Virus record (IMG/VR): IMGVR_UViG_3300042508_000526
Reading direction: 5' to 3' (one strand)
DNA from: a virus
Taxonomy: Duplodnaviria > Caudoviricetes
DNA: 64,000 nt
In this document: positions 29,442 through 64,000 of the stretch, in pieces
How the letters are laid out: the number at the start of each line of letters is the position of its first letter
Numbering within the stretch: position 1 is the stretch's first letter
Program-made: the position numbers and the translations under genes
Notes under the pieces: model-generated
Told to the model about the DNA's origin: nothing
Database searches by the model: none
Seen by the model: only the letters and a program-made list of their open reading frames with translations

Positions 29442-29517
29442 TGGCTGCCTGAGTAGGACTCGAACCTACGACCCGGCGGTTAACAGCCGCCTGCTCTACC
29501 AACTGAGCTATCAGGCA
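29442..29517 (-). tRNA. tRNA-Asn(GUU), CCA encoded
   Basis: canonical cloverleaf: TGCCTGA/TCAGGCA acceptor, GCTC-AGTTGGTA-GAGC D arm, CTGTTAA loop, TTCGAGT T loop, G-CCA end. Confidence 0.95.
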
Positions 29518-50429: not shown

Positions 50430-50463
50430 CACTAGATATACCCGGCTTTTGGCTTTTATTTAG
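50430..50463 (-). promoter_or_regulatory. conserved phage promoter copy 1
   Basis: CTAAATAAAAGCCAAAAGCCGGGTATATCTAGTG. Confidence 0.75.
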
Positions 50464-52236: not shown

Positions 52237-54462
52237 TCAGGAGGCGGCCGCAACTCCAGCCCCTGCGCCACCCACAGCAGCCGCTCCGCCAGCCCCATAG
52301 GCCAAGCGTTTCCCGGCCGGCACCATCGGCGACGCGACCGTCATGCCATACTGGAGCATGGGCTTGTACACATACTTGCCAACCGCGGGCATAACGCCGG
52401 ATTCATGCGGCTTGTACACCATGCTGTGATCCGCGGCCGACAGCCCTTGCAGCCGGCGCGGTGAAAGCTGGAACTCCACGGGTGTCTGGCCCAGCGTGCC
52501 CTTGATGTTCCAGCCGTGATAGCCCGGGCGCTGGAGCATTTGCGATTTACTTATGTTTACGCCGGCCTCTGTCAGCTGCTTCGTTAAGCTATCAATGACA
52601 GGTTGGTCATAACCGCCCTGCGATGTGAGCCGAAAGCCCAGCAGGTCATTGGTTATTGTGTCGCCGTGGCCAGCAATACTTTGCGGTGTCTTTACCCGGC
52701 CGGCATACACTTGGAACCCTTTGGGCTGAAATGACTTCAAGAACTCATTGCCGGCCTGTAACGCCTGCTCACGTTCTTTCTGGAAAACGCCTTGGGGCAC
52801 ATTGTCGCCCAGCGTTGTCATGGGGCCACGAAATGCGCTTCGAGCTGCGCCCACAGCCTTCGAGATACCCTTGAGACCAATGCGCCGGCCGAACTCCATG
52901 AGATTCGCCGACTTTTCTTTTTCGTCGGGCCAGCCGGGTTGCAACTGGTATTCGTACACGGGCTCGCCATGCAGCAGTTGTTTCTTGGCGAGGGCTGGAA
53001 CTTTGCCGACCATAGCGCCGGACGGATCGGGTTGCAGGCGATAGCGTTCCTGCAGCCATTGTTTTTTGTATTCCGGATCTGTTTTGGCCAGCCGCATGAA
53101 CCCCTGTGTCTGCACAAAGTTTTCGATATCTTTGGGCGCAAGGGAAACATTATGTAATCTCTCGGGCGGCACGCTCAGGGGCGTAATCTTGTAGTGTGTG
53201 CCTTCTTCTAACTGGCGCTTGTGTGTCCGCTCCGCCAGATGTTTACGCAGCCGGTCGAGAACTTCCTGCTGTTTCTTCTTGTTCCCGGGAATGATGGCGC
53301 GCGCTTCCCCTGTCCGGGCATTGTTGTAGGCCAGTCCGGGGTGCTGCAGCTCATCAAGAATCTGGTGTAAAGACTTGCGCAGGTTCACGCCCTGCACATT
53401 GCCCTCAAAGCTGTACACGGCAGACTGCTTGCCGAACTCATAGGCGCTGGAGCATTTGCAGTTCCACTTGCGCAGAGATTTGTTAATGCGCGAGTCAGGA
53501 TCTTTGGCCGTGCTGGCGCCAGTGTTAACTCGACGCATGCCGCACATACGGGAGCAGAAAGAATTCTGGCGCTTGGCCCGGTCGCCCTTGGGGTTACTTT
53601 CGGTCACAGGGGCTTTTAAGTTCCCGCCGTGCTCCCGTTCGTAGCTCTTGCGCCCCTTCTCGTTGAGGCCGCCAGCTTCGTTTTTGCCCTCGCTGCGCTG
53701 CCATGCCGGAGTTGACGATATCTTTTCGCTGCTATTGGCGGTCCCAAAAGACGCATTGCCGTTAATATCGCCGCTGGACGAGATAGCCCCATAAGAATTA
53801 ATGGGATTGGCGTTGGGAGAGCTACCGCCGCCTACTGGAGGAAGCTGCCCGGATTGCCCTTGGGCGCTCGCTTGGCCGCCAGCAGGGGCCGCCGGGGCTG
53901 CAGGAGCCTGTGCCATACCCATTGGGGGCGGCGTCGCGGCAGCTGGCATGGCGTATCGTTTAATTCCACTGTTCATCGGCTGTAACTGGGCGTTTCGGGC
54001 CTCCTGTTCAGCCTTTTCATTCTCGATCGCCTGCATAATCGGCTGGGACAAGACGACCGAAAGCTTTTTAAACAAGCTATTTTCCGCTTTTTCCGGCATT
54101 TTTTCGCAGATATGGTTTTCCCCCACGGTTTCTGCCGGCTGGACGGGTTTTTCACCTGCCGCCATGGGTTTATCACTCTGGGGGAGCGTAACTTTAACCG
54201 TTGTAGACTCGGCTTTCTTGCAAATTTGGCTGTAAATACTTACCGCTAATGACTTTGCAGAAAAATCCCAGTTGTTTGGCACCATGGCTGTTTTCTTATT
54301 TGTATCGTCGTCGCTGGACTCTGGCTTTTTGTCTTCTTGAGCCTTGTCAGAGACGTACAGAGGGAGCTTTTTAGGCTTCGGATACTCATGCGCCCAGCGT
54401 TTGGCAATATCTGGGTGCGCAGCCCAGAGAAACCGTCGCTGTTTTTCTGAGCGAAAGGGCAT
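52237..54462 (-). CDS. multi-module cargo protein incl. acylphosphatase-like and RelA/SpoT-like synthetase domains
   Basis: MPFRSEKQRRFLWA module; AWQRSEGKNEAGGLN..SFCSRM..LRKWNC module; GNVQGVNLR; GRVKTPQSI, DLLGFRL, GYHGWN, VEFQL, DHSMVYKP. Confidence 0.75.
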   Translation of the reverse strand: MPFRSEKQRRFLWAAHPDIAKRWAHEYPKPKKLPLYVSDKAQEDKKPESSDDDTNKKTAMVPNNWDFSAKSLAVSIYSQICKKAESTTVKVTLPQSDKPMAAGEKPVQPAETVGENHICEKMPEKAENSLFKKLSVVLSQPIMQAIENEKAEQEARNAQLQPMNSGIKRYAMPAAATPPPMGMAQAPAAPAAPAGGQASAQGQSGQLPPVGGGSSPNANPINSYGAISSSGDINGNASFGTANSSEKISSTPAWQRSEGKNEAGGLNEKGRKSYEREHGGNLKAPVTESNPKGDRAKRQNSFCSRMCGMRRVNTGASTAKDPDSRINKSLRKWNCKCSSAYEFGKQSAVYSFEGNVQGVNLRKSLHQILDELQHPGLAYNNARTGEARAIIPGNKKKQQEVLDRLRKHLAERTHKRQLEEGTHYKITPLSVPPERLHNVSLAPKDIENFVQTQGFMRLAKTDPEYKKQWLQERYRLQPDPSGAMVGKVPALAKKQLLHGEPVYEYQLQPGWPDEKEKSANLMEFGRRIGLKGISKAVGAARSAFRGPMTTLGDNVPQGVFQKEREQALQAGNEFLKSFQPKGFQVYAGRVKTPQSIAGHGDTITNDLLGFRLTSQGGYDQPVIDSLTKQLTEAGVNISKSQMLQRPGYHGWNIKGTLGQTPVEFQLSPRRLQGLSAADHSMVYKPHESGVMPAVGKYVYKPMLQYGMTVASPMVPAGKRLAYGAGGAAAVGGAGAGVAAAS

Positions 54463-54586
54463 GGCGAAGCTCGTATGTCAGGCGCTGCTGTTTCCCAAGC
54501 TGAATACGCTTATTGTGGCATATGAAACGTGGGAAGAAAAGGGCATGCTATACTGGCGCGCTGGGGAGTTACAAAAGGAGGCCGCC

Positions 54587-54916
54587 ATGCACGCGCTCAA
54601 GACGAGTTTTATTTCGCTGGCGTTGATTCTGTGGGCTGGGGAAGCCTACGCAGAAACCTTAGAGATGTTTTCGGCTGACTGGTGTAAATACTGTCAGCAG
54701 GCGAAAGCAGATTTACTGCCTGAAGATGCGCTGGTGGATAAATACCGGCTGGAAATCATCGACGTGGACCGGGCCAAGGAACTCGCCAAAGATAACAATA
54801 TCAAAACCCTGCCCACGTTTATCCTGCGCGATGACGAGGGGAAAGAAATTGCCCGCCAGACCGGATATCACGGCCTGCGAAAGTTTAAACGCTGGCTAGA
54901 AAATCACACCCGCTAA
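54587..54916 (+). CDS. exported thioredoxin-family protein
   Basis: signal peptide, WCKYC, LPTF cis-Pro motif; AGGAGG RBS; TGCTATACT -10 upstream. Confidence 0.85.
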   Translation: MHALKTSFISLALILWAGEAYAETLEMFSADWCKYCQQAKADLLPEDALVDKYRLEIIDVDRAKELAKDNNIKTLPTFILRDDEGKEIARQTGYHGLRKFKRWLENHTR

Positions 54917-54975
54917 AATGGCAGGCCGCAAAGCTTTGTGCCAATTAGGCAGTGCTGTCTTGGAGCGCTGATATC

Positions 54976-55005
54976 TAAAAAAAGAGGGTACGGTGTATAC
55001 CCTCT
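54976..55005 (-). terminator. intrinsic terminator closing ncRNA candidate 1
   Basis: AGAGGGTA/TACCCTCT stem + T tract, then AGATATCAG. Confidence 0.8.
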
Positions 55006-55580
55006 CCGCGTTAACGTACGCGTTCCACGGGCCTATCTCTGACTCATCGTCAGTTGGGACCACCCATGCGTTTTCTCTAGAGGTTCTGCACCTCTAGCTA
55101 CCGCTTGGACATTACATCCGCGCGCTTCTACCAGTGAGGTTGCCCATACCCAAACCTCACCAGTTCTAGCGGCACAACACGACGTGCATAACACTCGTGC
55201 CACACCCTGTGCTAGATTCGATTGGCCAACGCAAAACCGCATGGCTCTACACCGTAAGAAACGGAACAAGAAAAATTAGAAACCACCTGCTTTAGACTTT
55301 CTTGCGAAAGCTATCACATGGCGTTTCTCCCGATTGGAGCAGCGCGCCAATCACGCGTCACTGTGCGTAGTTGCAGAGTGAAAATAAGTGCGATGTAGAT
55401 TTCTCCGGCATTACGGAGACCGCTACAACACGGCTTGGTACTGCGACCAACTTTACTGCTGCACTGAACAGCGCTGTCTGTATGATTTCCTCGGGGATAT
55501 ACGAGGACCGCATACTCGGCCAAGCACTCCGGCTTGCTTTACCGTGGACAGGCATTGCACGATTGATAGGTATTCCCCAT
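54977..55580 (-). ncRNA. large structured ncRNA candidate 1 (~600 nt)
   Basis: lies exactly between promoter copy 3 and a terminator; no credible ORF; >10 hairpins, GCAA tetraloop, G-U pairs on minus strand, 5'/3' end pairings. Confidence 0.7.
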
Positions 55581-55614
55581 CACTAGATATACCCGGTTTT
55601 TGCCCGATATTTAG
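55581..55614 (-). promoter_or_regulatory. conserved phage promoter copy 3
   Basis: CTAAATATCGGGCAAAAACCGGGTATATCTAGTG. Confidence 0.75.
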
Positions 55615-55679
55615 CTGGGCCCTGATAGCTAAAGAAAGCTTGCGCTTTGCGGAGCCGTCGCCTCCGCTGCCGACATGCT

Positions 55680-56063
55680 TTAGCTCGCCGTGAGCCGCTC
55701 GAAGATCGCGAGGACCTCCGGCATCTTGGTGTTGACGATTTCCTTGATTTCGTCATTCACCGCGACTTGAATCGGACCGGCGTTCTCAACCCACTTCTGC
55801 CCGACACCGGCGGCGAAGAAGTCGGCCAGCGCGGCCATCTCTTCGTCGGTGAAGTTTTCACGCAGGTGGCGCGCCATTACGGGCGCGAACGTGTCGATCG
55901 TGAAGACCTCCAGAAAGGCGGCCTTCATTGACTCGACCATCTGGGCTGGCAACAAGCCATTGCCCATGTTTTCGATCATGTTCTTCACCATCGTGTCGAA
56001 CATGTCACCGGCACTGATCACCGCCAGAAGCCGATCAACCGACGTCGCAGTTTCCATCGTCAT
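55680..56063 (-). CDS. DUF2059-like helical protein
   Basis: FTDEEMAALADFFAAGVGQKW resembles the DUF2059 core. Confidence 0.65.
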   Translation of the reverse strand: MTMETATSVDRLLAVISAGDMFDTMVKNMIENMGNGLLPAQMVESMKAAFLEVFTIDTFAPVMARHLRENFTDEEMAALADFFAAGVGQKWVENAGPIQVAVNDEIKEIVNTKMPEVLAIFERLTAS

Positions 56064-56174
56064 TTCTCCGTGAAAGCAGGAGTAACCACAGCTTCAGCAT
56101 GCAACGCGCATGTGAACTCCAACCGGGTTACCGTGAGAGCGCCGCAGGGCAAGCCTACAGCATATCGACATCGC

Positions 56175-56396
56175 TCAGTTCCGGCCGTCCCACTCGAAGG
56201 TAGCTTCGAGCGGATTGGCTGCCGGACGAACCTTCCGCGGTTTGCGCGAAGGCTTGGGGGCTGGCTTGGACGCCGGTGGTGGCGGCGGCTCAGACCAGCG
56301 CTGCGCTAGATCCACATACTCGGAATACTGCTGAGACGCAGCACCAATCCAATAAAGAACCGCGCAGGCAACCACGATCCAGACGAACGCTGACAT
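56175..56396 (-). CDS. small membrane protein
   Basis: N-terminal TM helix, Pro/Lys-rich tail, AAGGTG RBS. Confidence 0.6.
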   Translation of the reverse strand: MSAFVWIVVACAVLYWIGAASQQYSEYVDLAQRWSEPPPPPASKPAPKPSRKPRKVRPAANPLEATFEWDGRN

Positions 56397-56470
56397 ATTT
56401 GCACCTTTCTCATGGGGTGTCCTTCATACAGGTTACTGGGGCGTAATATTTATGGCTTACGCCCATCGTT

Positions 56471-56504
56471 CACCTAATATGCCCGCGTTCTGGCGCAAAT
56501 TTAG
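56471..56504 (-). promoter_or_regulatory. conserved phage promoter copy 4
   Basis: CTAAATTTGCGCCAGAACGCGGGCATATTAGGTG. Confidence 0.7.
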
Positions 56505-56617
56505 AGCGTCAAAAAGATGATCAGGTCGAGGTCGTCTTCGTCCTCGTAGTCCCAATCTTCGCTCCCACGAGCGGAACGGGGCGGAATGGCGCAGGGCTGG
56601 CTCGTTGTCGCTGGCAT
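56501..56617 (-). CDS. 38-aa acidic peptide (not in ORF track)
   Basis: MPATTSQPCAIPPRSARGSEDWDYEDEDDLDLIIFLTL; GGAGG RBS; high GC3. Confidence 0.4.
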   Translation of the reverse strand: MPATTSQPCAIPPRSARGSEDWDYEDEDDLDLIIFLTL

Positions 56618-56688
56618 GGTCTAGCCTCCGGATTTAGATATTTGGACCGAAGGGCTATTTTACAAACCAGCCTGCTCCAGATTGTTAT

Positions 56689-56716
56689 CTAAATCGGCTA
56701 CAGGCACCGGCGATAT
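56689..56716 (+). promoter_or_regulatory. plus-strand copy of the promoter motif
   Basis: CTAAAT-CGGCTACAGGCACC-GGCGATAT, same spacing. Confidence 0.5.
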
Positions 56717-56722
56717 ACGCAA

Positions 56723-56807
56723 TTTGACGTAAGTGTTTGCAACACAAAGACTTACGTCAAAAAGGTATTCCGGTTTGACGTAACATGTTGCGGCACAAGG
56801 ACTTAGC
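56723..56807. repeat. two imperfect 34-bp direct repeats (51-bp period); the first is a 12-bp inverted repeat
   Basis: TTTGACGTAAGT-N15-ACTTACGTCAAA at 56723-56761; TTTGACGTAACATGTTGCGGCACAAGGACTTAGC at 56774-56807. Confidence 0.75.
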
Positions 56808-56817
56808 GCTAATAGCT

Positions 56818-56843
56818 AAAAAAAGCGGCGCCGAAGCCCGCTC
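56818..56843 (-). terminator. intrinsic terminator closing ncRNA candidate 2
   Basis: GAGCGGGC-TTCG-GCGCCGCT-TTTTT then AGCTATTAG. Confidence 0.75.
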
Positions 56844-57600
56844 GTGTCCGGTTTCATCACATGGTCGGATTCCACGCCACTGGGACAGACTAATGCGCTA
56901 GCCCGCCCGGTGGTGTTATATGCGCTTAAGGGCAACAGCAAGTAAGTGCGCAGTTACTTGTCGGCAGCAACGATGCGCATACCGCACCGCCTATGCTGTT
57001 GGGTCAGCCACTCACACCCATAGGGTCTTCTATGGGTGGAGCCTTTGAGGCCGCTGACCAGAACCTTCGCATTGCCGAAGCGAACGCGTCTAGGTTGTTA
57101 ACACAAGCAACGCCCACGGAGCAGGTACTACTACCCGCCTTGACCCCGTGATCCGTTTATTAGGCTACGTATACCATTGGGCTCAACTTATTAACGCTGA
57201 TCAGGCGTTAGTTTGTCGGGCTATTGATATACCGCAGGACTTTCACCTGCACCCCCCGCTCTCCTAAGTACTTTTTTATGAGCACAGTCGAGGAAGGAAC
57301 GCTCGTTTGCACACCATAGCACTCGCTTGTATGGCTTAACAGGGCGCTACCCCCGTGCAAACTCCATTGCCTTAACGCCTACCCCCACGAAATTCAACCA
57401 CCAAGGTTGCTCCCCATCCCTTGCGGAATGGGCCTCAGTGTGCGTGCACCCAGAGATTAGTTCATCTCACACGCTTCCGTAGGCGCTGCTTGTGTTAACA
57501 ACGCTAATAAATCCGACGCATTGCCATATTTCCACGTTACGCGTCGGACGTACATGGGGCCGGGCTTCGACCCCAGCGGACTGATGCTCACCCAGTTCGT
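56818..57600 (-). ncRNA. large structured ncRNA candidate 2 (~700-780 nt)
   Basis: ORF-free; 27-bp long-range helix 57476-57502/57094-57120; many nested hairpins; ends in UUCG terminator; 5' boundary uncertain. Confidence 0.7.
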
Positions 57601-57610
57601 GTAAAACTCC

Positions 57611-57802
57611 TTAGTTACGATTGACGTGAATGATAAACCCCTCGCCGAACGGTAGACGAAAAGCAGGGTCTGCAATAATCTTGCCATTGACCTCGACTCT
57701 TTCCTCGACGATTAGCCGCCGAGCAATGTGCTCGTCGACAGGCGTTTTGGAAAAAGGACCTACCTCGACCAGATAGTCTACGAGTGTTTGTTCTTTGGCC
57801 AT
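57611..57802 (-). CDS. stand-alone S4 RNA-binding domain protein
   Basis: ARRLIVEERVEVNGKIIADPAFRLPFGE = S4 signature; AGGAG RBS. Confidence 0.75.
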   Translation of the reverse strand: MAKEQTLVDYLVEVGPFSKTPVDEHIARRLIVEERVEVNGKIIADPAFRLPFGEGFIIHVNRN

Positions 57803-57845
57803 TTGAAACTCCTTGTGGTTGTTTAACTAACGTCCCAACCGTGCA

Positions 57846-57879
57846 CACAATATATGCCAGCATTTGACCGGTTATTTAG
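57846..57879 (-). promoter_or_regulatory. conserved phage promoter copy 5
   Basis: CTAAATAACCGGTCAAATGCTGGCATATATTGTG. Confidence 0.7.
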
Positions 57880-57882
57880 TTA

Positions 57883-58086
57883 TCAAACCAACCGGTCAAT
57901 TGCTGCCACAATTGCGGCCGAATACCGCAACCCGATATCTTCGGCCTCACTGCCCTCGCCGTACGCCTGCTGCAGTTCTTCCTGCATCTTGAGTACGGCG
58001 GCCCTCGTCTCAGCCAGCGTCCGGCGCATGTCCTTGAGCTGGATTTCCGGCGCTGTCTTGTACCGCAACCCCGCCTTCGTCGTCAC
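57883..58086 (-). CDS. hypothetical helical protein
   Basis: C-terminal part of track ORF 57883-58269; probable GTG start after AAGGAG; start uncertain. Confidence 0.5.
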   Translation of the reverse strand: MTTKAGLRYKTAPEIQLKDMRRTLAETRAAVLKMQEELQQAYGEGSEAEDIGLRYSAAIVAAIDRLV

Positions 58087-58321
58087 TTGCGGTTCCAAAT
58101 CGCTCTCCTTCTTTCTCACACAGGTCGTCCACCATTGGTTGTTCCAGTTCGTCGCCGCCTGATGCGTTGCCATGTTGCGTCTCTTCGAGGAAATAAAGAA
58201 TGTCGCTGATCGCGCCATCGACAGCACTGACCGCTTGTCGAATCTTGGTCTCAGCGACGCATAGTTCACGTTTTGTTTTAATCATCGTCTTCAGCGTGTC
58301 AACTAAAACTCGCCTTGTCAT
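58010..58321 (-). CDS. hypothetical protein
   Basis: helical N-terminus, acidic tail; overlaps next ORF, so boundaries uncertain. Confidence 0.45.
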   Translation of the reverse strand: MTRRVLVDTLKTMIKTKRELCVAETKIRQAVSAVDGAISDILYFLEETQHGNASGGDELEQPMVDDLCEKEGERFGTASDDEGGVAVQDSAGNPAQGHAPDAG

Positions 58322-58333
58322 GTGCACTTCTTT

Positions 58334-58618
58334 CTAGCGCAGAGCATCGAACGATTCTTGCAGGCCTACCGCGCGGTCGGCCAGAAACCGAGCCACGCGA
58401 TCCATCACGTCGATGATGCCTTGGTTTTTGTATACCCGCCGGGCCTCCGTCGGCGAGTACGCACCAAAGCACGTGACTTTCAGCAGTATGGGCGAGCCGC
58501 GGTCGGTCACCTCGACCTTTTCGATGTGACACATTTGGTCGCCCACGATGCCATCTTCCAGTGCGCGATTGCATGTATCGCGCAGCGCCTCAATGAACCA
58601 GCGCATGTTGTTGTCCAC
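58334..58618 (-). CDS. hypothetical protein
   Basis: 94 aa, AAGGAG RBS. Confidence 0.65.
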   Translation of the reverse strand: MDNNMRWFIEALRDTCNRALEDGIVGDQMCHIEKVEVTDRGSPILLKVTCFGAYSPTEARRVYKNQGIIDVMDRVARFLADRAVGLQESFDALR

Positions 58619-58633
58619 TTGCTACTCCTTTGG

Positions 58634-59047
58634 TTATTCGACCACCACGGACTTACCGGCGTACGAGATCTCCGCGAAGGGCGTGATCACAGCCGACAAA
58701 TCCTCGACCACAGCGCCATCCACCGCCACACGGCCCATCACGATCTCCCTGCGCGCGATGCTCGCCGGGATCTGATACGCGCGCGTCAACGCCTCCACGA
58801 GATACACCGCCGGATACGCCTCGGGCGGCTTTCCCAGCTGATCGTCCAAAAGGATCAGCGCCGCCTCGATCGAAAACTCGCCCGACACCGCCGCCTTATC
58901 AGGCGAAACCACACCGTGCAGGCTGCAGGCGTACGACCCGTTCTGCTGCAGAAATCGGATCAGGCTGCGGGCCGTTGTGCTATCAAAAGCCCGGCCCACC
59001 GCCTCGTTGTTGTACGTTCCGCCGATGCCATAGATCATCAGGTTCAT
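58634..59047 (-). CDS. protein with C-terminal S4 domain
   Basis: SIARREIVMGRVAVDGAVVEDLSAVITPFAEISYAGK = S4 signature. Confidence 0.7.
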   Translation of the reverse strand: MNLMIYGIGGTYNNEAVGRAFDSTTARSLIRFLQQNGSYACSLHGVVSPDKAAVSGEFSIEAALILLDDQLGKPPEAYPAVYLVEALTRAYQIPASIARREIVMGRVAVDGAVVEDLSAVITPFAEISYAGKSVVVE

Positions 59048-59051
59048 GATA

Positions 59052-59708
59052 TTAATCCCAGAGGCCCTCAAAGTACTTACCAAAGAGCAAGAGTCCACGA
59101 GACTTCCTGCTCTGCCACTCCATGTGGCCGTCCCTGTCGTACCCACCGCGGCGCATCGCGTCCTGAAACGAAAGCCCCGGTTCAGTCCGCGGTTTCGCCG
59201 GGTCCAGATCGTAATGAAACTTGTCTTCGGCGTTCGGGTCGACCATCTGCTCAAACGCCCAGATCATTTCATTCATCACCCAGTCCCACCGCTTGTGGGT
59301 GTTATCATCCGAGTACCCCATGTTCTGCTGTTCGGCAGTCAGGGGCGGCGCATTAACACTCTTCAGCTCGTCTGGTACGTCTTCGTCTTCCACGTGCGGC
59401 GAGCCGTGCTTGGTCTCTTTCAGCTGCTTGAGCATGGGCAGGACAATAAGCGCGAGCGTATCGTCCATGCCCCACGTGTCGTACGCGTCAATGCGAATCT
59501 TGACCTTGCGTGGCCAGCGGTGATTGATCCAGTTCTCCAACCGGTTTAAATAATAAAACCGCTTGAACACCCACGAATCGATCTGCTCCTGCTTGTCGTA
59601 CTCTTCTTCGTTGCGGGCGTTATACACGCCGTACCAGCGCTGGACGGCCCGCTTGAGCCACGTGTACGGCCGAAACCAGTGATCGTACGGGCCGATGTAA
59701 ACCTTCAT
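59052..59708 (-). CDS. conserved phage hypothetical protein
   Basis: MKVYIGPY; IRIDAYDTWGMDDTLALIVLPMLKQLK; WDWVMNEMIWAFE; GLLLFGKYFEGLWD. Confidence 0.8.
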   Translation of the reverse strand: MKVYIGPYDHWFRPYTWLKRAVQRWYGVYNARNEEEYDKQEQIDSWVFKRFYYLNRLENWINHRWPRKVKIRIDAYDTWGMDDTLALIVLPMLKQLKETKHGSPHVEDEDVPDELKSVNAPPLTAEQQNMGYSDDNTHKRWDWVMNEMIWAFEQMVDPNAEDKFHYDLDPAKPRTEPGLSFQDAMRRGGYDRDGHMEWQSRKSRGLLLFGKYFEGLWD

Positions 59709-60013
59709 CGCTTCCTCCGTGAAAGAAACCGGGGCCATTGGTGCCGACAATATGGGCACTGCCAGTAGCTTACGCCGTCGTAATGCTCTGGATGATCATG
59801 CGGCAGCTCAACACCCACGATCCGGCTGAACCGGTATGGCGGGCTGTAATGATCTTCGATGTACTTCTGCAGTTCCTCGTCGGACTTGTCGGCGCACCAA
59901 TCCTGCGTCCGTAACACGTCGAAGATCGCGCCGCCATCCCAGCTGGCATTGCAGCTAGGGCAGCGACCGTGATGATCCAGCTCTATCGGCTTGTCGTCCT
60001 TAGAAACTTTCAT
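59705..60013 (-). CDS. Cys-rich (Zn-binding) phage protein
   Basis: CPSC...YDGVSYWQCPYC. Confidence 0.7.
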   Translation of the reverse strand: MKVSKDDKPIELDHHGRCPSCNASWDGGAIFDVLRTQDWCADKSDEELQKYIEDHYSPPYRFSRIVGVELPHDHPEHYDGVSYWQCPYCRHQWPRFLSRRKR

Positions 60014-60264
60014 ACGGGCAACTCTTCTTTCGCTGGGAGTAAGCAGTACCGATCCTTGTACGGGAACACGCCGAGTGACCTCCCGTTATCCCATCGCACG
60101 CTTATCTGATGCCACTCCGGTGGACCCTCGAAGTTAACGTGCACAATCGTGCCTTCAAGCCCGGCCGGCATATCTTTCTCCACGGGCATCCATGTGGAGC
60201 CGGGATTGACCATCTGAGACAGCAACCGAATCCGCAAACCAACCGCAGGCGCAAGCGACGCCAT
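60010..60264 (-). CDS. DUF4314-like SH3-fold protein
   Basis: GLRIRLL..PAGLEGTIVHV..QISVRWDNGRSLGV. Confidence 0.7.
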   Translation of the reverse strand: MASLAPAVGLRIRLLSQMVNPGSTWMPVEKDMPAGLEGTIVHVNFEGPPEWHQISVRWDNGRSLGVFPYKDRYCLLPAKEELPV

Positions 60265-60470
60265 TAGAAACCCTCCGGAAAGACACGAACACTTCCTGCG
60301 TTCTGCCGAAACGCAGCGATCATGGGCTTGTAGACCGACTCGCACAGCCCGTGCTGCGCGCAGAGGTCTTCGGCCCAACCCATCCCCATCCAGACGACAT
60401 CCTCGCTCGCCGTCAGGCTAGCGAGGCCGACGAGCATGCACATCAGCGTTTCAACCACATCATTGCTCAC
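60264..60470 (-). CDS. hypothetical protein
   Basis: C-terminal part of track ORF 60264-60743; probable GTG start overlapping upstream stop. Confidence 0.4.
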   Translation of the reverse strand: MSNDVVETLMCMLVGLASLTASEDVVWMGMGWAEDLCAQHGLCESVYKPMIAAFRQNAGSVRVFPEGF

Positions 60471-60747
60471 GTAGGATGCGTGCTCGATCCCGGTTGAAGA
60501 GCGGACTGCAGCAACCCGCGCCGAAAGCTGGTTCAATTTCCCAGCCTTTTTGGGATGTAATGTGATCATAGATCCCGCAGAAGTATCGGGGCTGTTTTCC
60601 ATCGTCTTGTTGAACCTCCACAAGATGTTTACACGCTGCATCAGCCGCGCTGACGCTCTCACCAAAGCTGCAAGGCCGCCGCTTGCAGCAAAAACCAGAA
60701 TGCACACACGGCACAGCGCCGGGGTACAGCGGCAAAGGGGCAACCAT
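60460..60747 (-). CDS. Cys-rich YkgJ-like Fe/Zn-chelating protein
   Basis: CVHSGFCC..PC..CKHL..CGIYD..GAGCC. Confidence 0.65.
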   Translation of the reverse strand: MVAPLPLYPGAVPCVHSGFCCKRRPCSFGESVSAADAACKHLVEVQQDDGKQPRYFCGIYDHITSQKGWEIEPAFGAGCCSPLFNRDRARILREQ

Positions 60748-60794
60748 CAGATGCTCCTTCGTGGTTAAGAACGCTAATGGCACAGCGCCAATAG

Positions 60795-61140
60795 CAAAGA
60801 AAAACCGGGCGGGTCGATTTACGCGTTCCCAACCCTATAACCCAAGACGAGCTGCAGCTCTTCTTGGAACCCCTCCACGCCGGAGTCGCCGCCACGATAT
60901 TCACCGCAACGGTTCCGGAAGGTAAGGAGTACCCGGTTTACAACGGCGCGCTCAGGTATGCTAGCTGGCGCTGGATACAGGACTTTGGGATCGCGCATAC
61001 CATTCCACCCTAGTTTCCTGCACCCCCGTTGTTGGCTTAGACCCGGCTGTTAATTCAGCGCTCTTACCCGATGAGGGATAAGATACGACCGCCATGTCGT
61101 AGCGTTAATTCGCGCCGCTACCCGATGAAGGATAGCTCCG
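60795..61140 (-). ncRNA. structured ncRNA candidate 3 directly downstream of tmRNA
   Basis: tandem double-hairpin repeats with compensatory changes, crossing helices, terminal T tract. Confidence 0.55.
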
Positions 61141-61146
61141 GGCGAG

Positions 61147-61494
61147 TGGAGCCGGCGGGAATCGAACCCGCGTCCAGAGATGTCTCCAATAAAGACGTCT
61201 ACATGCGTAGGTTGTTGCTACTTGCGCTACAACCAAAGCCAGCCGATTATCGGCGTCAGGTGGGTTACCACCATCTTTGCGTGTCTTTCCACGCCGCCTG
61301 CTGTCTTCCCAGCGGCCAACCTGATTGGGCGATGAGGCTCAGGTCGCCTCACCCGATCACTGCGTCAAGCAGCGAGAGCGGGAGCGCTGTTGAGGGCGCC
61401 AACTAACAATGTGGGCGATTTTTAACGTGGCCCTTCGTCCAACCACGGCATGCAGTCTAGATCTTCCTCATCCTGTCGAAACCAGTACGGCCCC
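61147..61494 (-). ncRNA. ssrA: tmRNA (standard one-piece); tag (A)GALNSAPALAA*
   Basis: 5' GGGGCCGTACTGGTTTCGAC; 3' GCGGGTTCGATTCCCGC-CGGCTCCA with G3-U70; tag ORF 61400-61365 after TAGTT. Confidence 0.93.
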
Positions 61495-61500
61495 TAAATT

Positions 61501-61689
61501 TCACGCAACTGCGCTGGGCAGTGGCGTTACTTCGTAGGCGCGGCCATAAAAATAGCCGTGCCAAAAGTCGTCAACGTGTTTGTCTTGCAACAGCGCATTC
61601 TGATCCGCAACTGTTGCAGCCTCTTCCTTGTTTAGTTTCAACACGCGGCAGTTGTTGCCGAGAGTTTCCGCATACACAAGCGGTGTCAT
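61501..61689 (-). CDS. small hypothetical protein
   Basis: 62 aa, AAGGG RBS. Confidence 0.55.
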   Translation of the reverse strand: MTPLVYAETLGNNCRVLKLNKEEAATVADQNALLQDKHVDDFWHGYFYGRAYEVTPLPSAVA

Positions 61690-61775
61690 TTCGTTTCCCT
61701 TTTGTGAAAAATGAAACCAGCACGGCCACAATTGTATTAGAAACTCACCGCAAAACGTTGAGTTTCCAATATGAA

Positions 61776-61849
61776 TAACCCGGGTGGGAGTCGAACCCAC
61801 AACAAGTAGATCCTAAGTCTACCGCCTCTGCCAATTGGGCTACCGAGTC
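61776..61849 (-). tRNA. tRNA-Leu(UAG) with short variable loop; no CCA
   Basis: GACTCGG/CCGGGTT acceptor, GTAGA-CTTAGGA-TCTAC anticodon arm, 5-nt variable region, GTGGG-TTCGACT-CCCAC. Confidence 0.85.
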
Positions 61850-61922
61850 ATTAAATGTGGCTGGTTGAGAAGGCAACCATTTAACCAAGCCCAACACCTT
61901 GCGAATGCGTTGGCACCACACA

Positions 61923-61994
61923 TGACCCCACGGGGATTCGAACCCCGATTATCGCCGTGAAAGGGCGGTGTCCTAACCATTAGACGATGGGGCC
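61923..61994 (-). tRNA. tRNA-Glu(UUC); no CCA
   Basis: GGCCCCA/TGGGGTC acceptor, CTTTCAC loop, CGGGG-TTCGAAT-CCCCG. Confidence 0.92.
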
Positions 61995-61998
61995 GCGG

Positions 61999-62160
61999 TC
62001 AGGCAAGTCCAACATACTCTGCTTTGCGCCAGAAGTACATTGGCATGCCGATTTGCATATGCCCGTCGCGGACGCGTGTATCCAGCGGGGCATTGTTCGA
62101 ATTTGCCCACGCAATGATACTCGTCACCGCATCGTCGCTCTGCACTGTTCTGTAAAGCAT
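61999..62160 (-). CDS. 53-aa hypothetical protein (not in ORF track)
   Basis: MLYRTVQSDDAVTSIIAWANSNNAPLDTRVRDGHMQIGMPMYFWRKAEYVGLA; GGAG 7 nt upstream. Confidence 0.55.
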   Translation of the reverse strand: MLYRTVQSDDAVTSIIAWANSNNAPLDTRVRDGHMQIGMPMYFWRKAEYVGLA

Positions 62161-62196
62161 TGGTACACTCCATTGTTATCAGAACACAAATCACAG

Positions 62197-62267
62197 TAGC
62201 CCGCCGAGGAGTCGAACCCCGCGTTGCGAGTTAATAAGACTCGCTTGCCAACCGGTTTCCGCGGGCC
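62197..62267 (-). tRNA. atypical tRNA, anticodon UAU (Ile), degenerate D arm
   Basis: GGCCCGC/GCGGGCT acceptor, CGAGT-CTTATTA-ACTCG, CGGGG-TTCGACT-CCTCG; no recognisable D stem, U at 37. Confidence 0.6.
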
Positions 62268-62353
62268 GGAACGAGCGGGTGCCGGAAGCTTGGGCTTCTC
62301 CCGGCACCCGCCCTACCAGACGCGACGCGCTTTAGCGTTTCGCGGCCAGTGTG

Positions 62354-62689
62354 CTATCGGTAGCGCTTGCAGGCGAACCAGCGGCCATTTGAGCCGCGTG
62401 CTACGCCTTGGTCAACTACCCGCATACCAGACCGAGAAAAGCAACAGTTACCCAACGCGGCTTCGGGAGTGCTCCCGCTGCCGACGCCTTCGTAACCGCT
62501 GTTGCCGCCGAAGTGGCGGCACTGCCCGCATCGAGCCTGCATCTCCGCAACGCCCTGCGCAGTCGCGTTGGTAGGCTGATAGTATCGCATCGGTTGATGC
62601 GACGTGTAGCTCTCGATGATGACAGGTCCGTCAGCGCAGGCAATCCCAGCAAGCACTGACAGCACAGAAAAAACACAGACGCGAATCAT
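62354..62689 (-). CDS. exported CAP/SCP-like Cys-rich protein
   Basis: signal peptide; HFGG..YEGVGSG...CC...GVARGSNGRWFAC resembles truncated CAP proteins. Confidence 0.6.
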   Translation of the reverse strand: MIRVCVFSVLSVLAGIACADGPVIIESYTSHQPMRYYQPTNATAQGVAEMQARCGQCRHFGGNSGYEGVGSGSTPEAALGNCCFSRSGMRVVDQGVARGSNGRWFACKRYR

Positions 62690-62760
62690 AGATCCTCCGT
62701 GAAGAGCTGCAGGTGCGCGCAGCCCAAAAAGATCAGCCCCGCACCGGGCTTTCTGACACT

Positions 62761-63123
62761 TCAGCAGCCAGCCGGCTGCAGCACGCGGCCTTTGATGACG
62801 CGGCTGCCCGGTTTCCGGCCGGTGTTACGCACCTTATGCGCAACGCCCATCCGAATCAACCGGTTGGCCCGGGCGGCGGTGAAGATGTAGTTGTTACCGA
62901 TCATCCTGTTGGGGAGGAACGGGTTACGGTCCAGTCCCTTGTTCCCATGGCGACGCGACTCATGCGCCTCCAAGAACTTTTCGGCCGCCGCTGCGCGAAG
63001 CCCGTAAAAACGGTTCATGGTCAAGGGGCGCAAACCCAACAACTCACGACCGAAGTTAATACGAGCCCGAATCTCACGCATTGAGATCGAGCAGCTGCAG
63101 AGCCACGGATCGTTCTTTGCCAC
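62761..63123 (-). CDS. basic hypothetical protein
   Basis: GTG start after AAGGAG; Arg-rich. Confidence 0.6.
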   Translation of the reverse strand: MAKNDPWLCSCSISMREIRARINFGRELLGLRPLTMNRFYGLRAAAAEKFLEAHESRRHGNKGLDRNPFLPNRMIGNNYIFTAARANRLIRMGVAHKVRNTGRKPGSRVIKGRVLQPAGC

Positions 63124-63226
63124 GATGGTCTCCTTATCATCCCTGATGTACAGCCGCACAGCGACTGTGTCCACTGAACAGCAAGTTACACCGTGTAACC
63201 TGCTTGCAGCCAAACGCTAGCTGCAA

Positions 63227-63299
63227 TGGCCGCGGGGGGACTCGAACCCCCGCCCTCCTGCGTGTAAAGCAGGCGCTCTACCAACTGAGCTACGCGGCT
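63227..63299 (-). tRNA. tRNA-Val(UAC); A1-C72 mismatch; no CCA
   Basis: GCTC-AGTTGGTA-GAGC, CCTGC-TTTACAC-GCAGG, GGGGG-TTCGAGT-CCCCC. Confidence 0.92.
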
Positions 63300-63307
63300 A
63301 CCGTACG

Positions 63308-63676
63308 CTATTCAGCGTCGGGTTTGATGGCGTCGAGCATGTCAACGATCTGCCGCATGTACCCACGCGGCGGAAGCGGTACCCAGCTTTTTGCGCGTTC
63401 TGGGTCGTACGGTCGCCAATATGGCGCATCGTCAGCGTCCACCACACCCCAATCGTTGTTAACAAACTTGTTGTGGTTGATGGCGTCGACAAGCCGTTGC
63501 GGCATATCTTCGTACACGAGTTGCCCGTCTGGGCCCTCGTAGCAGCACTGCGTTTGCACCGTGCTGTCGAATTTACCGATGTGGATTCCGATATTCGGAC
63601 CGAAGTAATAAACCATTTGGTTTTCTTCTGGCAGCCGATCGATACACCGAATCCATCCGTCGTTGTCCGCACTCAT
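63308..63676 (-). CDS. hypothetical protein (DUF551-like N-terminus)
   Basis: GWIRCIDRLPEENQMV motif. Confidence 0.65.
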   Translation of the reverse strand: MSADNDGWIRCIDRLPEENQMVYYFGPNIGIHIGKFDSTVQTQCCYEGPDGQLVYEDMPQRLVDAINHNKFVNNDWGVVDADDAPYWRPYDPERAKSWVPLPPRGYMRQIVDMLDAIKPDAE

Positions 63677-63954
63677 TCGTCTTCTTCCTCGTCGGGCGGG
63701 AACATGGCGTTCCAGCAGGTGTTGCAGATGCCGGACAGAAGAAACTCACGCTCGCTAGCGGGCAAGTACGGGAAACAATCCTGCACGTAATTGCCCGCTT
63801 CGAACCGCGCGTAGTCCTGCGGCTTGACGGTCACAGAGACCACCGTACCGCAGGAATAGCATGGACCCTCAATGAGGATCTGCTGCTCGCCACCATCGGT
63901 TACCTCTTCCGTGGTGCAGTTCCCGCGGAAGACGTACTTTGTTATCAAAGCCAT
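63673..63954 (-). CDS. Cys-rich hypothetical protein
   Basis: CYSCG..VQDCFPYLPASEREFLLSGICNTCW. Confidence 0.7.
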   Translation of the reverse strand: MALITKYVFRGNCTTEEVTDGGEQQILIEGPCYSCGTVVSVTVKPQDYARFEAGNYVQDCFPYLPASEREFLLSGICNTCWNAMFPPDEEEDE

Positions 63955-63984
63955 TGAGCACCTCCCGTGAAAAAAAAAACACAA

Positions 63985-64000
63985 TAGGAGCGGTGGGACT
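63985..64000 (-). tRNA. probable 3' end of a tRNA truncated by the window edge
   Basis: minus strand AGT-CCCAC-CGCTCCT-A = T-arm end plus acceptor strand. Confidence 0.4.

Follow-up and report, generated by a model that had tools for sequence, protein, structure and literature searches.

Large and intricate non-coding RNAs are rare in bacteria and phages, and they have proved to be ribozymes, cores of ribonucleoproteins and, lately, cages made of RNA only. The tRNA region of phage T4 combines a tRNA cluster with the stable RNAs species 1 and 2 (RNA C and D), which have ~120-140 nt and are co-transcribed and processed with the tRNAs. Stand-alone S4-domain proteins are represented by Hsp15, RqcP/YabO and YbcJ. 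The RNAs GOLLD and ROOL are often located near tRNAs and in prophages, ROOL having ~580 nt and GOLLD being longer (PMC5737381), and their assemblies have been described by cryo-electron microscopy (cryo-EM; bioRxiv 10.1101/2024.12.08.627333). Huge phages carry transfer-messenger RNAs (tmRNAs), and SmpB has also been reported in them (PMC7162821). The present analysis concerns a block of about 8 kb (positions 54,976 to 63,299) in a stretch of 64,000 nucleotides, hereafter the window, of the virus record IMGVR_UViG_3300042508_000526 (Caudoviricetes). This block contains a tmRNA, several tRNAs, two proteins with S4 or S4-like domains and three large ORF-free units (ORF, open reading frame) named here RNA A, B and C. 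It is probably, with a good deal of room left for other readings, a stable-RNA gene island of a freshwater jumbo-phage lineage, where separate RNA genes lie among small unrelated ORFs and do not form one machine. RNAs B and C are two new structured RNA families, as judged against Rfam and not against the 8,495 IMG/VR candidates of PMC10690425.

The comparison with the described systems reveals both likenesses and differences. RNA B is similar to GOLLD and ROOL as a large RNA with many helices and a complex, pseudoknot-free branching, located beside phage tRNA and tmRNA genes, and its self-complementary loop could mediate self-assembly into oligomers that we infer. However, none of A, B and C matches an Rfam model, and B has 345-400 nt and belongs to one freshwater phage clade. 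RNA C, behind the tmRNA, resembles the stable RNAs of T4 by its layout only, whereas B and C are larger and B has its own promoter and terminator in the relatives. The tmRNA is comparable with those of huge phages and mycobacteriophages (full, in one piece, with an ALAA-type tag, beside tRNA genes and in a phage of >200 kb); it differs by the conserved RNA C downstream and by a genome that encodes no SmpB. Finally, the shorter S4 protein (63 aa) resembles the stand-alone S4 proteins in its small size and its predicted alpha-L RNA-binding fold, but its sequence matches the generic Pfam S4 family only and its own family is nearly private to the phage clade.

Gene order and distribution among relatives

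The window corresponds to the bases 80270-144269 of a complete record of 203,206 bp with direct terminal repeats, and its genes are on the minus strand. A codon-usage scan indicates that coding signal is missing in all six frames at 54.9-55.65, 56.4-57.6 and 60.8-61.5 kb. Near-identical DNA was found in at least 24 lake-water metagenome runs. In nine strain contigs, taken from other lake samples, the sequence across A and B is 99.8-100% identical, and both regions are left empty by the JGI gene callers. Eleven related contigs, seven of them of 157-205 kb, were retrieved with the phage helicase (69-83% identity) and their syntenic regions were compared (individual contigs are cited below with G and L numbers). 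The conserved order is tRNA-Val, orf111, a tRNA-like element, tRNA-Glu, tRNA-Leu, tmRNA, C, DUF4314, a 102-aa ORF, phrog_11543, sometimes S4, sometimes a 94-aa ORF, a 128-aa ORF and B; after B comes a variable stretch and then thioredoxin. The RNA-centred character that the initial annotation had attributed to the block is confirmed by an order kept across 80%-related phages of ~200 kb, whose helicases are 77-83% identical to that of this phage. Outside this lineage, near and distant searches detected no similar DNA in 50,697 phage records, and neither B nor C had a homologue in 59 phage loci that share phrog_11543 and are more distant. Within its own genome, no paralogues of the RNAs were found elsewhere.

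Among the 11 loci that cover the region, the tmRNA is present in all 11, C in 10, B in nine, S4 in six and A in one. The core components do co-occur, as the initial annotation had expected for related phages, and strict co-occurrence is lacking. B is missing in G006 and G010, the latter having a tmRNA and neither B nor C. S4 is found without B in G006 and L144, while G003, G004 and G007 hold B and C without any S4 ORF. Since these parts come and go separately, they appear, from their distribution, to be independent cassettes in a conserved RNA island.

The three large units were compared with the known RNA families. An Rfam search of 54000-64000, at the gathering score and at E<=1, gave nothing for A, B or C, and each of them taken alone had no match at E<=10 among 4227 Rfam families, which include RNase P, group I and II introns, 6S, SRP, riboswitches, GOLLD, ROOL, Y RNA and tmRNA variants. 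No tag reading frame was detected in A, B or C, nor any small ORF with a convincing ribosome-binding site and length.

RNA B

The transcription unit of B contains the following features:
57094-57502, minus strand: core of RNA B with 16 helices (inverted repeat I1, covariance, RNA contigs)
56817-57093, minus strand: phage-specific 3' extension of the unit, with a UUCG-loop terminator at 56817-56843
57503-57610, minus strand: leader between the S4 gene and the B core, partly common to L135/L138 (blastn, nhmmer), not covered by RNA contigs
57851-57879, minus strand: phage-type promoter (CTAAAT, 16 nt, GGCATATA) ahead of the S4 gene and RNA B

Homologues of the positions ~100-540 of the 782-nt ORF-free stretch were detected by nhmmer in eight relatives, directly after the 128-aa ORF. 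The large RNA initially placed at 56818 is a conserved and expressed unit over the ~400-nt core 57094-57502, and not over the whole 780 nt. The core is closed by a helix of 27 bp, formed by 57476-57502 with 57094-57120, which has 21-27 bp across the relatives. Both arms of this helix change, for example from CACAAGAAGCGCUCGUGAG to CACAUGGCAUGCCUGUAAG, with matching changes in the opposite arm. In the relatives, B is preceded by the -35 and -10 boxes TTGACG and TAGAAT or TACAAT (16 nt apart, the boxes being conserved and the spacer variable) and is followed by an intrinsic terminator.

With the alignment A1, RNAalifold gives 150 predicted pairs, and compensatory changes occur in 42 of these. 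The model R2, built from seven relatives with this phage excluded, recovers 57100-57496 with 106.6 bits (E 3e-30). Pattern scans added L135 and L138 (window type, 86% identical), L137, L141 and L129 to the family, which contains 12 contigs. In the 12-member alignment, 45 of 115 pairs display compensatory changes (shuffles, 20; slid controls, at most 11), and 98.4% of the cells are paired (shuffles, 89%; slid controls, 34-46%). The main-type members are ~90% identical mutually, while their neighbour proteins are 40-65% identical to those of this phage, and the sequence is strongly constrained in the unpaired parts as well. The folding z score of B is -7.9; the mean of 16 coding windows is -0.6 and their minimum -3.4.

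One hairpin loop of B reads CCGUACA in the main type (ten members) and CUGAUCA in the window type (two members), its stems covarying freely. Both loops are centred on a self-complementary tetranucleotide (GUAC or GAUC). This palindrome, present in both types, suggests a loop-loop homodimer: B may pair with itself through this loop, as judged from one loop in two sequence types.

Contigs of four freshwater metatranscriptome runs, from three studies, were placed on 54400-63400. They are identical to the window across 57113-57479 only, and the S4 gene, the leader and nearly all the remaining genes have no depth. The 3' extension has no identical RNA contig, its depth being 0 in three runs and 0.42 in X31. 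As carry-over DNA would also cover the flanks, B seems to persist as a stable RNA that far exceeds the phage mRNAs in abundance or stability; at least one of the RNAs of the block is present in RNA libraries. The ends of the RNA contigs cluster at 57113-57115 and 57473-57479, which is at most a weak hint of trimming or processing within the closing helix. The depth observed on the 3' end of the tmRNA and on the tRNAs comes from conserved parts of other organisms, as indicated by loose contig ends at 61178-61183. C has depth just in the bin that it has in common with the conserved 3' end of the tmRNA. A search of sequencing runs with the whole 8.4-kb stretch gave no RNA run. Given its 16 helices, the 45 pairs that covary and its presence in environmental RNA of three studies, B is a strong candidate for a new large ornate RNA. 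The phage is abundant in many lake metagenomes, and raw reads could fix the ends and levels of its RNAs without culture.

The B core motif was also searched by pattern scans. The viral contigs gave the known relatives only, and the metagenomes gave six contigs, three corresponding to records of known relatives and three to the same clade (L135, L137 and L138). A single contig of a metagenome-assembled genome (MAG) was found among the bacterial genomes. The MAG 'bacterium isolate WB9_2_064' comprises the contigs L141 and L155 (RGVZ01000266.1 and RGVZ01000259.1), of ~5 kb, on which lie B, C and the UAG tRNA from a phage related to this one; these contigs are either phage DNA sorted into a bacterial bin or a clue to the host. 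In L135 and L138 (Ga0007796_10011595 and Ga0207954_1003620), B is followed by a gene for a C92-family papain-like amidase, at the place where this phage has the extension, a micro-ORF and DUF2059.

RNA C and the tmRNA

Upstream of DUF4314, the island comprises these features:
61144-61494, minus strand: full-length, one-piece tmRNA, 3' CCA not encoded (Rfam RF00023, 130 bits)
61041-61143, minus strand: spacer between tmRNA and C with two repeated hairpins (repeat family D8), common only to G002 and G004
60798-61040, minus strand: RNA C, ~240 nt, with a loop-loop pseudoknot and ending in an intrinsic terminator (alignments A2 and A3)

The tmRNA is confirmed by RF00023 (cut-off 47 bits), whose model positions 1-374 of 374 are all covered. 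Its tRNA-like domain is present in the Rfam alignment, GGGGCCG pairing with CGGCUCC and the T arm being GGGUUCGAUUCCC, and its tag frame reads GALNSAPALAA-stop. In the related loci, all the tags end with ALAA or AIAA. ARAGORN missed the tmRNA in the window and called it in six relatives. SmpB (PF01668) has no match at E<=0.1 in the complete 203-kb genome, so that the tmRNA would need the SmpB of the host.

The DNA that follows the tmRNA is the best conserved of the region (73-86% identity), and the large RNA predicted at 60795 was recovered there as a conserved structured core at 60798-61040. The 5' domain of C is composed of two hairpins whose loops pair with each other, by GUAUGC/GCAUAC or, in G002 and G006, by CACGC/GCGUG; in the 3' domain, the closing helix runs into the terminator. 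In the nine aligned sequences, 95.9% of the cells are paired. Compensatory changes are seen in 19 of 63 pairs (shuffles, 7.6; slid controls, at most 4), and the pseudoknot covaries at two positions. The coverage of C positions 1-110 by nhmmer is limited to L105 and L107. The model R1 recovered more copies of C in L129 and L155, and a pattern scan gave eight extra stretches, one of which is real.

C is located downstream of the tmRNA in 10 of the 11 loci, with a spacer of ~100 to ~580 nt across the relatives. The gene after C differs among the relatives whereas the preceding tmRNA is constant, which argues that C is not the leader of one gene. C may be co-transcribed with the tmRNA. As far as could be found, no conserved RNA had been tied to a phage tmRNA gene before C. 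Both B and C are small enough to be transcribed in vitro and studied by native gels and cryo-EM.

An antisense pairing of B or C with the tmRNA was also considered. Nothing conserved was detected between them, just inconsistent and G-U-rich matches, and the idea of B or C as conserved antisense RNAs to the tmRNA was rejected for this reason.

tRNAs and tRNA-like element

On the other side of the tmRNA are found:
63226-63300, minus strand: tRNA-Val (UAC) with an A1/C72 mismatch atop the acceptor stem (ARAGORN; Rfam 71.9 bits)
62273-62313, minus strand: conserved hairpin of ~17 bp directly 5' of the tRNA-like element (8-phage alignment)
62196-62281, minus strand: atypical tRNA-like element (ARAGORN with lowered threshold), its ends being read as ~62198-62266; T-arm repeat family D1
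61923-61994, minus strand: tRNA-Glu (UUC) (ARAGORN; Rfam 61.9 bits)
61775-61850, minus strand: tRNA 'Leu' (UAG) with a short variable loop (ARAGORN; Rfam 56.5 bits)

Four tRNAs had been announced, three of them with deviant structures. Three genes pass both ARAGORN and Rfam, and the fourth is the atypical element with a UAU anticodon. The deviations are real and mild. In tRNA-Val, a gene found in all the relatives, the first pair is flagged as non-standard by Rfam; tRNA-Glu has one non-standard pair in the anticodon stem; in the 'Leu' tRNA, a short variable loop replaces the long arm usual in bacterial tRNA-Leu. This last tRNA is 97-100% identical in the relatives, against ~70% for its flanks. 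The Leu-anticodon tRNAs (UAG here, UAA in L104, L106, L108 and L110) all have 73-76 nt and short variable loops, unlike class II tRNAs, and the amino acid that they carry is uncertain. In a scan of bacterial genomes, the tRNA-Leu pattern was found in one MAG only, the same as for the B core motif.

The tRNA-like element has a normal acceptor stem and T arm, a reduced D arm and the anticodon loop CUUAUUA, whose UAU would read AUA. It remains below the RF00005 threshold in this phage. The relatives conserve it, and its acceptor stem covaries among them. In G003, G004 and G008, its counterpart is a tRNA of 101 nt (Rfam 53.9 bits), and a tRNA with a CAU anticodon sits at this place in G001. Both arms of the adjacent hairpin vary in the eight aligned phages with the pairing kept; this hairpin is possibly a processing helix. 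A search for Y RNA/YrlA gave a sole match of 29.4 bits (cut-off 69), located on tRNA-Leu, and the genome contains no Ro/TROVE protein (PF05731). A fifth tRNA (Asn-GUU) is located at 29442-29517 on the minus strand, 32 kb from the island and among structural-type genes.

Proposed functioning of the island

If the block is an island of separate RNA genes, each part would act on its own. The tRNAs for A-ending codons (GUA, GAA, CUA and probably AUA) would supplement the host pool, and the complete tmRNA with host SmpB would free the ribosomes stalled in the infected cell. C, which carries the next terminator after the tmRNA, would be co-transcribed with it and released when the 3' end of the tmRNA is trimmed. 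B, expressed in the relatives from a predicted sigma-70-type promoter and ending at its own terminator, would accumulate stably with its ends clamped by the helix of 21-27 bp; it may then pair with itself to give a dimer or a larger RNA particle, in the style of GOLLD and ROOL, acting in trans. A would be an orphan transcript of ~600 nt acquired by this phage only. The two S4 proteins would be small general RNA binders, gained, lost or moved independently of the RNAs. More generally, the tRNA islands of phages are sites where new stable RNAs accumulate, and they offer a practical guide to RNA discovery.

Several points weigh against this explanation. B and C are confined to one narrow clade (~13-15 contigs), and many compensatory cells may consequently trace to few events, mainly the split between window type and main type. 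The RNA runs were picked because they contain B words, and assembled contigs give neither levels, nor ends, nor strand. These runs have no identical contig and practically no depth for A, the B extension and the protein genes, and no identical contig for C or the tmRNA of the phage itself, a silence that is uninformative on expression given how the runs were chosen. The processing and self-pairing of B, the co-transcription of C and every function given to A, B and C are what we infer, and the role of the tRNAs as codon supplement is checkable only with the host. The GTAC/GATC of the palindromic loop could also matter otherwise, e.g. as a protein or DNA-level site. Finally, there is room for a looser functional link, since tRNAs, tmRNA and C keep their order and both S4 copies of the genome are located here.

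RNA A and the extension of B

Two features belong to the unit of RNA A:
55586-55614, minus strand: phage-type promoter (CTAAAT, 16 nt, GGGTATATC) ahead of RNA A
54981-55585, minus strand: RNA A, orphan ORF-free unit of ~600 nt (promoter, terminator, fold z score), with its terminator at 54981-55007

The RNA candidate at 54977 stands as an ORF-free unit from promoter to terminator with an extreme folding z score, and it has no homologue in the relatives or in the collections searched (blastn, nhmmer and one exact-pattern scan). Its z score of -5.1 to -5.7 is beyond the 16 coding controls (-3.4 or weaker) and the tmRNA (-3.5), its fold on the minus strand is better by 36 kcal/mol than that on the plus strand, its terminator is among the strongest of the region and it holds no ORF with a ribosome-binding site. 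Without a homologue, a comparative proof is impossible, and the near-identity of the nine strain contigs leaves no covariation signal. A is plausible as a phage-specific RNA, unproven.

The explanation that survives best beside the island of separate RNA genes is that A and the B extension (56817-57093) are recently acquired or decaying spacer, transcribed only by their location between promoter and terminator. Neither has a homologue in the relatives or the collections searched, nor an identical RNA contig, and the extension folds like coding DNA, with a z score of -1.9 that is within the coding range. In G007, the genes flanking A in this phage (DUF2059 and thioredoxin) are ~85 nt apart, which marks A as an insertion. 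Against it stand the extreme fold of A (z -5.7), its full phage promoter and very strong terminator, and its identity of 99.8-100% among nine strain contigs whose lake samples differ. We regard the spacer explanation as possible and rather doubtful.

The promoter-like motif CTAAAT, 16 nt, GG[GC][TC]ATAT is found five times between 50 and 58 kb, always on the minus strand (50463, 52233, 55614, 56504 and 57879). They lie ahead of RNA A, the S4-B unit, a 73-aa ORF and the protein genes at 50463 and 52233. The region of the motif at 55577-55691 is multi-copy in every relative.

S4-domain proteins and the question of one system

The two S4 proteins are encoded at:
57611-57802, minus strand: stand-alone S4-domain protein of 63 aa (Pfam S4 PF01479, 28 bits against a cut-off of 22.8)
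58634-59047, minus strand: protein of 137 aa with an S4-like C-terminal half (Pfam S4 E 0.015; genome scan E 5.7e-4)

The S4 domain of the 63-aa protein is established by its Pfam score and by its AlphaFold model (pLDDT 80), which Foldseek superposes on the S4 domains of TyrRS, RluD, RsuA and uS4 with TM 0.67-0.73 and probability 1.0. This protein has just three homologues among 5.8 billion proteins, and peptide-pattern scans of viral contigs detected no S4 relatives. For the 137-aa protein, the S4 assignment is tentative: the Pfam scores of 15.4-18 bits are under the cut-off, whereas the protein is a paralogue of the 63-aa protein (BLASTP E 2e-5), sits where the relatives have S4 ORFs of 69-82 aa and can be aligned with these. 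These two proteins are the only S4 matches of the 203-kb genome.

A more ambitious reading of the locus is that B represents a new abundant class of large RNA (a homo-oligomeric particle assembled by the palindromic loop, or a ribozyme), that C is a dedicated companion of the phage tmRNA and that both take part in a joint RNA layer reworking host translation. This reading is unlikely in our opinion.

A single integrated module for translation takeover or anti-defence had been advanced in the initial annotation, in which the RNAs, tmRNA, odd tRNAs and S4 proteins would work together, S4 being a partner of the large RNAs, e.g. in an S4-B ribonucleoprotein. All parts are indeed inside 8 kb with the order tRNAs-tmRNA-C conserved; both S4 matches of the genome sit here; the S4 gene and B are under one promoter in this phage; and S4 domains bind tRNA and rRNA in the structures matched by the model. 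The distribution argues for the contrary, S4 being present or absent independently of B and C in G003, G004, G006, G007 and L144, and G010 keeping the tmRNA only. The arrangement of S4 followed by B is unique to this phage. In the relatives, the S4 gene comes after phrog_11543 and not beside B, as does the closest homologue of the 63-aa protein (86% identical), which is followed by a 95-aa ORF and no RNA. In L135/L138, which carry the closest B, promoter and leader are shared with this phage, but a 110-aa ORF that matches no known family sits where the S4 gene would be. In the relatives, B is moreover preceded by a promoter of its own. Finally, A is restricted to this phage, and no translation-related domain occurs in the other ORFs of the block, nor was SmpB, Ro/TROVE or another translation factor found in or near it. 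One integrated module is therefore improbable, and the separate RNA genes of an island agree better with these data.

Decoy RNAs and DNA-level functions

As an established counter-defence, the tRNAs of phages stand in for, or protect, tRNAs that anticodon nucleases cleave. By analogy, B, and perhaps C and A, could be decoys or sponges that soak up a host RNA-binding defence nuclease or regulator. B would suit such a role by its apparent abundance far above the phage mRNAs, its place in a tRNA/tmRNA island and its constraint even where it is unpaired. However, the Rfam searches at E<=10 reveal no tRNA- or tmRNA-like module in A, B and C, which also have no tag frame, and B has no conserved complementarity to the tmRNA or C. 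In the pattern scan of bacterial genomes, B was seen only on the phage-like contigs of one MAG, and it is thus not an obvious copy of a host RNA. We give little credence to decoys as compared with stable RNAs of the island.

The idea that B and C act as DNA (origin, packaging site or protein-binding array) or as cis-regulatory leaders could call upon the riboswitch-like layout of the C terminator directly ahead of an ORF and upon the long inverted repeats of B, which could form DNA cruciforms, but it is very improbable given that pairs are kept by G-U wobble and compensatory changes on one strand, that B is found in RNA libraries without its flanks and has its own promoter and terminator, and that the gene after C varies while the tmRNA before it is constant.

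Other observations in the region

The motif TTTAGCTAT[TC]AG[CG]GC is located after the terminators of A, DUF2059, the B unit and C (54964-54987, 55618-55641, 56805-56828 and ~60784-60800). In the relatives, the corresponding post-terminator motif is TTTTTTTAGCTATTAGACGTAA, and inverted TTACGTC repeats come after it. The motif may serve as an operator or an UP-like element.

The stretch 56400-56828 (minus strand) is conserved and ORF-poor. It contains a 38-aa acidic micro-ORF (56501-56617), kept as a protein in the relatives, which also have a sigma-70-like TATAAT in this stretch. A nearly invariant leader of ~60 nt, with the GGCGUAAGCC hairpin, is located directly ahead of the 73-aa ORF.

At 57883-58327 (minus strand), a 105-aa ORF and the 128-aa ORF overlap by ~260 nt in different frames. 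Both frames are hit by tblastn in the relatives with the same arrangement, and these ORFs may be nested genes or the product of a programmed frameshift.

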